From the NCBI RefSeq assembly GCF_003334305.1, contig NZ_QOWS01000048.1: a DNA stretch of 7,079 bases; one strand, given 5' to 3'. The notes below the pieces were generated by a model. That model was not told the DNA's origin. It ran no database searches and saw only the letters and a list, made by a program, of their open reading frames with translations. Source of the stretch: Escherichia coli. GTDB lineage: Bacteria; Pseudomonadota; Gammaproteobacteria; Enterobacterales; Enterobacteriaceae. A program made the translations under genes and the position numbers. Below are positions 3,652-6,015 of the stretch, in pieces (positions within the stretch are counted from its first letter, which is position 1; each line of letters opens with the position of its first letter).

Positions 3652-4596
3652 ATGGTAATGAAGAATATCGAGACAAAATGGTTATACGATTTCCTGACAC
3701 TGGAAGCCTGTCGCCATTTTTCTCAGGCGGCAAAAGAGCGTAATCTTTCGCAACCCGCATTCAGCCGACGAATTAAGGCGCTGGAGGCAGCGATCGGCGT
3801 TGTTTTATTCGATCGCACGACCACCCCTTTACAATTAACCGAAGAGGGCAAGCTCTTTCATTCCCAGACTCGCAGCTTATTACAGCAGCTTGAATGCAAT
3901 TTGGGGGAGTTAAACGGCCAGAGTTTACTCGGCGTTCCCAACATTAAAATTGCAGCCGCGCACTCACTATCCCTGAGCGTATTACCCAAACTGGTGCATT
4001 CACTTACCGCCTATGGCGGAGAATTTGTCTATCATGTTGAAGCCATTGATGTTGTCCAGGCCGTAAATACGTTACGCGAAGGCAAGAGTGACTTTATTAT
4101 TTCGTTTCGCGATGAAGATCTTATGCAATCGCCTTTTTGCTGCCTGAAACTGTTTGAATCTGAGTTGTACCCGGTATGTGCCGCCGACGCACAGGGGCAC
4201 CCTGTATTCGATATCACTCAGCCCCAGGTTCCTTTGCTCAACTATACCGCCACATCTTATATGGGCAGGTTGGTCAATCGTCATCTGGCAGAGGTTGGAG
4301 GTATTACCGGGCGCACGATATTTATCTCTTCGATGAGCGAGTTATTAAAGAATATGGCGCTCAACGGATACGGCATTGCCTGGTTACCGATCTGGTCGAT
4401 CGTCGATGAACTACAGACCAAACGTCTGATATGCCTTGATGCTGCTAAATTGACAGTCCCCATTCAGGCTTATATTTACCGAATGAACACCCGACTGAAT
4501 AGAACCGCCGAGAACCTCTGGCGTATTTTACAGGAACATATGCCAGACGATTTAATCCAGCAGATATCAATGGAAGAGCCAGCATGCCGCAATTGA
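3652..4596 (+). CDS. LysR-family transcriptional regulator (LTTR), YjiE/HypT-like; true start more likely the ATG at 3658
   Basis: N-terminal winged-HTH region (...LEACRHFSQAAKERNLSQPAFSRRIKALEAAIGVVLFDR...) followed by a LysR-type substrate-binding domain. The N-terminus resembles what I recall of E. coli YjiE (...NIETKWLYDFLTLE...). An AGGTG Shine-Dalgarno at 3645-3649 sits 8 nt before the ATG at 3658 but only 2 nt before the ATG at 3652. Confidence 0.9.
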   Translation: MVMKNIETKWLYDFLTLEACRHFSQAAKERNLSQPAFSRRIKALEAAIGVVLFDRTTTPLQLTEEGKLFHSQTRSLLQQLECNLGELNGQSLLGVPNIKIAAAHSLSLSVLPKLVHSLTAYGGEFVYHVEAIDVVQAVNTLREGKSDFIISFRDEDLMQSPFCCLKLFESELYPVCAADAQGHPVFDITQPQVPLLNYTATSYMGRLVNRHLAEVGGITGRTIFISSMSELLKNMALNGYGIAWLPIWSIVDELQTKRLICLDAAKLTVPIQAYIYRMNTRLNRTAENLWRILQEHMPDDLIQQISMEEPACRN

Positions 4597-4613
4597 CGAC
4601 GTGCAATAAATAT

Positions 4614-4637
4614 CCTCCGGCATAGCCGGAGGTTTTT
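4614..4637 (+). terminator. GC-rich hairpin plus T5 tract 18 bp downstream of the lysR stop (probably the IS200 right-end hairpin)
   Basis: CCTCCGGC-ATA-GCCGGAGG perfect stem (4614-4632) followed by TTTTT (4633-4637) has the form of an intrinsic terminator for plus-strand transcripts. By my boundary estimate it lies inside the IS200 right end. Confidence 0.6.
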
Positions 4638-4713
4638 CAAATGCGCCTATAAGGCTCTCTTACCAGCCGCGCCCTAACAGGCGCACACGATCTGACATTT
4701 GCATCCAACTTCG

Positions 4714-5173
4714 TTACTTACGGTCCGTAAACGGGCTGCCCGGACAGGGAATCGATAACTGCTCTCCCATTTTATCCTCTTCAAGCTGGTGCTTTATGTA
4801 ATCCTGTATCTTCGCCGTGTTCTTACCCACTGTATCGACGTAGTCCCCCCTGCACCAGAACTCCCTGTTCCTGTATTTGAATTTCAAATCACCAAACTGC
4901 TCGTAAAGCATCAGACTGCTTTTCCCTTTCAGATATCCCATAAACCCGGATACGCTCATTTTGGGCGGGATCTCCACAAGCATATGGATATGATCTGCAC
5001 AGCATTCAGCTTCCAGAATCCGTACGCTTTTCCACTCACACAGCTTTCTCAAAATACTGCCTGTTGCTCTACGCTTCTCTCTGTAGAACACCTGTCTTCG
5101 GTATTTTGGCGCAAAAAACTATGTGATATTTACAGTTCCATCGGGTGTGCGCTAAGCTCTTTTCGTTCCCCAT
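4714..5173 (-). pseudogene. tnpA: IS200 transposase tnpA (Y1/HuH), apparently frameshifted
   Basis: ATG at 5173 (minus) opens MGNEKSLAHTRWNCKYHIVF, then the frame changes at a T6 run (plus A6 at 5113-5118). The remainder ...FAPKYRRQVFYREKRRATGSILRKLCEWKSVRILEAECCADHIHMLVEIPPKMS...FWCRGDYVDTVGKNTAKIQDYIKHQLEEDKMGEQLSIPCPGSPFTDRK* is in another frame (six-frame ORF 4714-5091). The intact IS200 TnpA as I recall it reads through ...KYHIVFAPKYRRQ..., so this copy appears to carry one extra T. Confidence 0.75.
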
Positions 5174-5179
5174 TGGGAC

Positions 5180-5249
5180 CCCCTTTTGATTTCTTGTTTG
5201 ACACTTGCAGTTGCCAGACCGCAAGGTGTTTTAACAAATCAAAAGGGGT
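5180..5249 (-). promoter_or_regulatory. IS200 5'UTR stem-loop that sequesters the tnpA ribosome-binding site
   Basis: Perfect 13-bp inverted repeat: CCCCUUUUGAUUU pairs with AAAUCAAAAGGGG across a ~44-nt loop on the minus-strand transcript. The 3' arm contains the AAGGGGG Shine-Dalgarno just upstream of the AUG at 5173. Matches the described IS200 nt 69-138 structure. Confidence 0.7.
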
Positions 5250-5283
5250 TTTAATAACTGGCTCAAAGCTGAAAGCTTTCCGG

Positions 5284-5306
5284 AACCCCCAGCCTAGCTG
5301 GGAGTT
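5284..5306 (-). promoter_or_regulatory. IS200 left-end hairpin (described as blocking read-in transcription)
   Basis: Minus-strand AACTCCCAGC-TAG-GCTGGGGGTT forms a 10-bp stem (one G.U pair) with a 3-nt loop, 23 nt in total, at the position expected for the IS200 nt 12-34 hairpin. Confidence 0.55.
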
Positions 5307-5316
5307 TTCTGTGCAC

Positions 5317-5344
5317 AAAAAAACCCTGTAAAAAACTTACAGGG
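5317..5344 (-). terminator. Perfect palindrome plus T7 tract (minus-strand intrinsic terminator) abutting the IS200 left end
   Basis: Minus strand reads CCCTGTAA-GTTTT-TTACAGGG followed by TTTTTTT (plus 5324-5344 stem-loop, plus 5317-5323 A7): an 8-bp perfect stem with a U-tract. Confidence 0.55.
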
Positions 5345-5942
5345 GTATAAGGCTTAGCCTAACTTGCGTCTGTTGCATGGTGCCGGGTGCCTCCCGGTGA
5401 ATTCAGTCGGTGTCACTGAACCCGCGTAGGCTTCGCTCATAACATAATAAATGCTATGTACACCAGTCGCCCCACCGCACAGGGGGATTCACCACACGGC
5501 GCACTTTTTAACAAATATCCCTCCGGCCAGACAATAATAAACATAATGAATTGTGATCTTCTTAACAGTTTTAAAGTGTTACAGATAACATGCCAAGTAA
5601 TTGCTTGTTTTTTCATCAATAGGAAGACCACACCAACAACCCCAGCTATCAGCCAGAACCGACATTATCCGGCTGATAAAATCTACCATCACTCCAACAC
5701 CAATCACCGCCTGTGCCAGATCGCGTTTCTCAAACTTTTTAATCTCTGTTGCCACTCTGCGGGTTTTCTTTTTGAATTTTGAAAATACCAAATATCGTGA
5801 CGTTTCTTTGGGGGATGAGCTATCAAGCGGGAACGATCTGCCTACAGAGAAAGTCAGCCAGACCACTCTGCAAATTATCCCCGAAAGGCTCTGTGGCTGA
5901 TATGCGCCGGGCATGGCGCAATGGGCCAGTGGCAGTGTGTGA

Positions 5943-6015
5943 TGGTGGCCCTTACTGGATTTGAACCAGCGACCAAGCGATTATGAGTCCTCTTACCACT
6001 GAGCTAAAGGGTTGG
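5943..6015 (-). tRNA. Degenerate tRNA(CAU)-like sequence resembling tRNA-Ile2 (ileX/ileY-like); probable pseudogene or attachment-site relic
   Basis: Minus strand reads AACCCTTTAGCTCAGTGGTAAGAGGACTCATAATCGCTTGGTCGCTGGTTCAAATCCAGTAAGGGCCACCA. The T-arm, variable loop, CTCATAA anticodon loop (CAT) and 3' acceptor-CCA are recognisable and resemble E. coli tRNA-Ile2 as I recall it. However ~5 nt are missing at the D-stem/anticodon-stem junction, and the first two acceptor-stem positions (AA instead of GG) cannot pair with the 3' strand. Confidence 0.55.

Follow-up and report, generated by a model that had tools for sequence, protein, structure and literature searches.

A single-base expansion in tnpA of an IS200C copy adjoining hypT in Escherichia coli

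On the minus strand of a 7,079-nt stretch of Escherichia coli DNA (assembly GCF_003334305.1, contig NZ_QOWS01000048.1; hereafter, the window), the transposase gene of an IS200 element is divided between two reading frames at a run of six T residues. Is such a copy dead, is the run a misread homopolymer, or does the run itself let some ribosomes return to the right frame? A preliminary description of the window, drawn from its letters, had left all three options standing. Here, we report that the element is best explained as a fixed, vertically inherited, inactivated IS200C copy (IS200 group, IS200/IS605 family), lying in a genomic island between an STnc100-family terminator and hypT, a reading to which we give a probability of about 0.9. 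A frameshifted IS copy is routine genome decay, this one was already flagged by RefSeq, and in itself it matters little. What is added here is that the frameshift is real and inherited, that about 200 complete E. coli genomes have it, and that it had a single origin, on a copy in which near-invariant TnpA positions were already substituted. Rather than an active element or a recoding site, the T6 copy is a stable marker for a lineage or island.

An IS200C copy with a broken tnpA frame

A 731-nt query spanning the IS returned 100%-identical top matches in many complete E. coli genomes, identifying the window as E. coli chromosome, and was 98 to 99% identical at the DNA level to annotated IS200C elements, both chromosomal and plasmid borne. 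The limits of the element and its differences from other copies were taken from an alignment of the window with four IS200C copies inserted at other, unrelated loci (next to parE, galR, tkt, and dgcZ), in which the intact elements measured 711 nt between the same landmarks (Table 1). The true left boundary may lie inside the T run at 5317 to 5323. As in the IS200 group generally, subterminal hairpins are present at both ends, without terminal inverted repeats; the ends align with those of the four independent copies, and the right-end region (4605 to 4713) is identical to theirs.

Table 1. Features of the IS200C copy and its immediate flanks (window coordinates)
Feature	Position	Strand	Remarks
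hypT (LysR-type regulator), flanking	3652..4596	+	Convergent with tnpA; stop codon 8 nt from IS right end
IS200C copy	4605..5316	-	712 nt, GTGCAC... to ...GGATATTTATT; homology limits against four IS200C copies
Right-end subterminal hairpin (CCTCCGGCTATGCCGGAGG)	4614..4632	-	
tnpA codons 21-152 and stop	4714..5112	-	One base out of frame; APKYRRQVFY...GSPFTDRK*; stop at 4716-4714
G150D	4724	-	Against IS200C consensus
Y143C	4745	-	Against IS200C consensus
Y110D	4845	-	Against IS200C consensus
R108, synonymous change	4849	-	Against IS200C consensus
I37T	5063	-	Against IS200C consensus
T6 homopolymer (A6 on plus strand)	5113..5118	-	One-base insertion breaking tnpA; T5 in intact copies
tnpA codons 1-20, frame 0 (MGNEKSLAHTRWNCKYHIVF)	5114..5173	-	ATG at 5173-5171
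tnpA 5'UTR and region opposite art200 antisense RNA	5183..5306	-	Full-length match to Rfam STnc490 (RF01405)
Left-end hairpin	5284..5306	-	C to T at 5303; predicted fold weakened from -18 to -15 kcal/mol
C to T in left-end hairpin	5303	-	G-C pair becomes G·U
STnc100-family sRNA, flanking	5313..5527	-	Rfam RF02076, 136.4 bits (gathering score, 47)

The multiple alignment with the four intact elements placed a single extra T in the run (T6 versus T5). Past it, frame 0 reads CAKIPKTGVLQREA and reaches a stop 14 codons on, at 5071 to 5069, giving a 34-codon product. The split of the 20 N-terminal codons from the remainder at 5113 to 5118 was thus placed and described correctly from the start. The reference relied on in support of it was also right, as the annotated intact IS200C elements examined have T5 and a single 152-codon open reading frame (ORF), and not T6 within an unbroken frame. 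The uninterrupted transposase ORF required of an autonomous, active IS200-group member is absent, and the window copy is a defective member of the group, a pseudogene. RefSeq/PGAP labels this very copy "tnpA, IS200/IS605 family transposase, frameshifted" and flags it as a pseudogene, so that this status is already in public annotation; the literature was also searched for work on this particular frameshifted copy, with no relevant result. Of the options first listed, inactivation is the one borne out by the broken frame and the RefSeq call. A 180-aa plus-strand ORF antisense to tnpA (4789 to 5331) was considered as a gene candidate and rejected: it arises from the extra base, through which two open frames (131 and 127 codons) that are separate in intact IS200C become one.

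Repair of the frame gives a 152-aa protein that scores 141.6 bits on NCBIfam NF033573 (transpos_IS200; cutoff, 55) and matches the solved TnpA structures 2ec2, 2f4f, 2a6m, and 2xm3 (IS200/IS605). Together with the DNA identity to IS200C, the NCBIfam score marks the resemblance as homology with a well-studied element and no coincidental pattern. Its length of about 150 aa, HUH motif, and catalytic tyrosine are those of a Y1 HUH transposase of the IS200 group, IS200/IS605 family, and the residues H61-I62-H63, Y125, and Q129 are all intact. The nucleophile is Y125, within QDYIKHQ, which aligns with Y127 of IS608 TnpA (chain 2a6m_A); Y125F is a catalytically dead mutant of IS200 (PMC4513863). The motif YVDTVG, first named as the tyrosine region, is not the catalytic site in view of this alignment and mutant. 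In the window copy, the YY that precedes VDTVG reads DY (Y110D); loss of the catalytic tyrosine through this change was considered and rejected on the same alignment and Y125F control, Y125 being intact.

With the extra T included, the alignment gave seven differences from intact IS200C, and the ORF departs from consensus by four nonsynonymous changes and one synonymous change. Residue conservation was assessed over an alignment of the 150 best representatives among 1.84 billion cluster representatives searched. Of 137 relatives aligned at position 110, 130 have Y and none has D; G occupies position 150 in 45 of 47, and I, V, or L occupies position 37 in 130 of 136; position 143 varies. The four-to-one ratio, together with changes at near-invariant positions, suggests relaxed or absent selection before the frameshift. 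A copy carrying Y110D and G150D was probably impaired by then, and we infer a loss of activity from the missense changes. With only seven positions differing from an active-looking IS200C, the pseudogene is young, without heavy erosion. The copy has in common with E. coli IS200C (TnpA WP_000526135.1) the hairpins at both ends, the 5' untranslated region (UTR), and a place directly after a terminator-like hairpin and T run; it differs in the extra T within the T5 run of codons 19 and 20 and in I37T, Y110D, Y143C, and G150D.

The 5' RNA region is well preserved. It matches STnc490 over model positions 1 to 124 of 124 (143.1 bits; gathering score, 56), its predicted fold is -32.1 kcal/mol (z = -5.1), and the sequence from 5302 to 5119 is identical to that of intact copies. 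The claim that both 5' stem-loops are perfectly preserved was therefore nearly right, failing only at position 5303 of the left-end hairpin. In Salmonella IS200, that hairpin has been described as a bidirectional terminator shielding tnpA from outside transcription (PMC4513863). Salmonella IS200 also resembles the window copy in its stem-loop sequestering the Shine-Dalgarno sequence and in its art200-complementary region (PMC4513863), whereas it belongs to another host and isoform and has an intact tnpA. With the ends and the 5' regulatory RNA region of the window copy essentially intact, its transcription would still be possible, and an intact IS200C in the same genome could in principle mobilize it in trans.

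Distribution and history of the copy beside hypT

The exact T6 81-mer was found in 209 E. coli records and the exact T5 80-mer in 968, and the locus with both flanks is present in 201 of 5,426 complete E. coli genomes (about 4%). With 209 T6 records against 201 genomes holding the locus, T6 essentially tracks this one hypT locus. An 81-mer carrying D110 occurs in 332 records, so that the D110 allele is wider than the T6 allele. Among the loci compared, T6 accompanies a specific haplotype of linked single-nucleotide polymorphisms (SNPs).

Orthologous copies with an intact frame exist beside hypT. They share with the window copy the insertion site, Y110D, Y143C, and G150D, and differ from it in having T5 and a 152-codon ORF. 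One haplotype (I37/T5) is represented by five genomes matching a T5-edited query at 100%, left flank included; the three of these loci that were fetched (L008 to L010) have the same insertion, T5, and an intact ORF encoding WP_032287156.1 (carried by EBJ003, STO_Bone2, and TUM1223). In another (T37/T5; loci L011 to L013), the gene adjoins hypT in WCHEC020031, CRE389, and N1024 and encodes WP_021513032.1, which is exactly the repaired protein of the window, I37T being common to both. At these WP_021513032.1 loci, the left end and promoter of the IS have been cut off by IS4 or by ISEcp1-blaCMY-2, and there are four changes near the Shine-Dalgarno sequence. The frameshift held up in our analysis, while the orthologous unframeshifted copies elsewhere, the additional missense changes, and the C-to-T change in the first hairpin had all escaped the preliminary description.

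Y110D, Y143C, G150D, and the C-to-T change at 5303 are common to all three haplotypes (I37/T5, T37/T5, and T37/T6), which makes the step from T5 to T6 the derived one. The most parsimonious order, as read from these sequences, would be insertion beside hypT, then Y110D, Y143C, and G150D with the hairpin change, then I37T, and then T6; the excess of D110 records (332) over T6 records (209) fits it. Reversion or gene conversion could in principle account for the T5 orthologues, which would then not be ancestral, at the cost of more steps; bearing on gene conversion, the five I37/T5 genomes each hold 20 to 25 IS200 matches.

The mechanism that we propose is a one-base expansion from T5 to T6, most likely by replication slippage, a route that we infer. 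The extra base shifts the tnpA frame after codon 20; the ribosome would terminate 14 codons on, and no HUH/Y1 transposase would be made from the window copy. The frameshift is apparently the latest of several degenerative steps, with Y110D, Y143C, G150D, and the weakened left-end hairpin coming first, I37T after them, and T6 last. Counted against this account are the intact catalytic residues and the almost unchanged ends and 5'UTR, and slippage in the T run could revert the frameshift.

In other E. coli strains, later insertions into the left end of the hypT-adjacent IS200 were located at L011 345 to 2139, L013 1 to 1487, L012 141 to 1487, and L007 2978 to 4324. One of the inserted elements, the ISEcp1-blaCMY-2 unit, puts an AmpC beta-lactamase gene into the chromosome; the other is IS4.

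Other readings of the extra base and of the copy's persistence

Were the extra T a homopolymer miscall in sequencing or assembly, the gene would really be intact. Homopolymer indels are a common error of long-read assemblies, and T5 is present at the same locus in some strains, but the identical T6 81-mer recurs in 209 records spanning numerous laboratories, countries, and years, and the top matches of the 731-nt query are 100% identical across the IS. The T5 orthologues examined, moreover, are distinct haplotypes and not random one-base dropouts, differing from the window at 5063, or at 5203, 5183, 5177, 5175, 5026, and 4945, as well as in the flanks. As about 200 complete E. coli genomes, each assembled independently, have T6 with its flanks, and given the linked SNP haplotype, we reject the read error that had been suggested as one explanation, leaving it a chance close to nil; T6 is a real, inherited mutation. 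The presence of both T5 and T6 at the orthologous locus would also be expected of a contingency (phase-variable) switch, in which the run toggles between the two lengths and turns the transposase on and off. At every locus compared, however, the T5 or T6 state matches the linked SNPs and the structure of the flanks, a pattern expected of one past mutation and not of frequent switching; a run of 5 to 6 nt is short for a contingency locus, and the intact copies elsewhere have T5. We regard such a switch as extremely improbable. Recoding, by +1 ribosomal slippage on GUU-UUU-U or by transcriptional slippage on T6, would restore the frame at a low, biologically used level and add one more brake to a transposase that is tightly repressed as it is. 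In its favor, tRNA-Phe bound to UUU would find a perfect pairing again one base downstream (U UUU U), the parental protein would be recovered exactly by a shift on the run, and in certain contexts error frameshifting in E. coli can attain per-cent levels (PMC10861913). With a TAG in the correct frame immediately before the run and a frame-0 stop 14 codons after it, correction would have to take place on the run or directly behind it. Recoding is opposed by the lack of conservation of this layout: intact IS200C has T5 and one ORF, and in diverse relatives the frame runs through F20-A21 without a break (among 150 relatives, F at position 20 in 106 of 117 aligned and A at position 21 in 90 of 119). 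In many bacterial genomes, transcriptional slippage, and with it selection against runs prone to it, becomes evident from about nine A or T residues (PMC1088944), and T6 is well short of that length. Inspection of 5090 to 5140 for stimulators gave an A-site codon, UGC, that is neither slow nor a stop, and no Shine-Dalgarno-like sequence within 15 nt upstream. The downstream ORF has accumulated its four nonsynonymous changes against one synonymous change, near-invariant positions included, and PGAP annotates programmed frameshifts (for example, in its IS1 entry) yet calls the window copy a pseudogene. Like IS1, the IS3 family, and elements with IS630-type A/T runs, the window copy has a homopolymer between two transposase reading frames; those elements, however, keep the two frames and the slippery motif from member to member and need them to make the transposase, whereas here a single allele at a single locus has this layout. 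Neither mark of a programmed frameshift, a conserved two-frame layout with a slippery motif or, on inspection, the accompanying stimulators or long run, is evident. The idea that the run is slippery enough for low-level frameshifting goes unsupported, the intact copies having T5 and one ORF, the run being short, and no stimulator being seen; we judge biologically used recoding very unlikely, though in a weaker variant rare slippage on T6 may still yield traces of TnpA.

Decay of the transposase would also be compatible with a copy kept for its RNA, the 5'UTR-derived sRNA (5'tnpA), the antisense art200, or both having a regulatory role in the host for which the transposase is dispensable. Persistence in about 4% of E. 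coli genomes would then be due to an expressed 5' module acting on host targets, most clearly in strains with the window copy as their sole IS200. In Salmonella, the IS200 5'UTR gives rise to a regulatory sRNA and art200 is encoded opposite it (PMC4513863, PMC5435999, PMC12594629); 5'tnpA regulates invF, PinT, and other regulons, and domestication has been proposed as perhaps widespread (PMC5435999, PMC12594629). In the window, the strong, full-length STnc490 match and the identity of 5302 to 5119 with intact copies speak for this explanation. Transcription, processing, Hfq binding, and trans regulation of the STnc490/art200 module are known only for Salmonella (PMC4513863, PMC5435999, PMC12594629). 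Conservation, however, does not exceed what so recent a pseudogene would show: the ORF has 6 changes in 460 nt, a rate that predicts about 1.6 for a 120-nt UTR, where 0 or 1 was found, and a comparison of 5'UTR with ORF conservation gave no statistical excess, on numbers too small to show any. The sister haplotype L011 to L013, with four UTR changes around the Shine-Dalgarno sequence and with its promoter and left end cut off by IS4 or ISEcp1, argues against constraint at the locus, and many of these genomes have other IS200C copies able to supply the same RNAs. We therefore consider a retained RNA function unlikely and prefer the reading of an inherited, inactivated copy. Several strains have the window copy as their only IS200 match, such as strain 503025, and are natural material for asking whether the IS200 RNA module acts without its transposase in E. 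coli.

Surroundings of the insertion

By annotation, the region around the window copy is an IS-rich island (IS600, IS100, ISEc22, and IS1). The terminator hairpin of the STnc100-family sRNA (5344 to 5324) and its T run directly abut the left end of the IS. The STnc100 match (RF02076) is full length, directly upstream of the IS, and in the same orientation; the RefSeq records examined have no RNA gene at this site, just a DUF3927 pseudogene fragment nearby. Among the 5,426 genomes, a search for an empty site in which STnc100 would be joined straight to hypT, as a means of recognizing a target duplication, found none. An apparent empty site in NCTC86 proved to be the same IS, interrupted by IS4 about 30 to 40 nt inside its left end. 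At the right end, flank sequence is not evidently repeated, and the left ends of all five insertions compared adjoin a hairpin and a run of six to eight T residues.

Those five independent IS200C insertions (window 5317 to 5344; L003, approximately 274 to 314; L004, approximately 272 to 312; L005, approximately 267 to 307; and L006, approximately 269 to 309) each lie right after a GC-rich hairpin followed by 6 to 8 T. The hairpins and T runs resemble intrinsic terminators and have one constant orientation relative to the left end of the IS. The pattern suggests that terminator-like hairpins or T runs may be a preferred target of IS200C.

A tRNA-like remnant was detected at 5946 to 6013 on the minus strand, with a CAU anticodon loop, a 3' CCA, and a partly missing anticodon stem. 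It scores 30.7 bits on the Rfam tRNA model, barely over the gathering score, and ARAGORN called no tRNA anywhere in the window; it is possibly a tRNA pseudogene or the remnant of an island attachment site. At the other end of the window, a plus-strand ORF of 237 aa (268 to 981) resembles the C-terminal part (orfB, integrase core) of an IS3-family transposase, and strain 503025 has, in the matching region, an annotated pseudogene of an IS600-family transposase without its N terminus.
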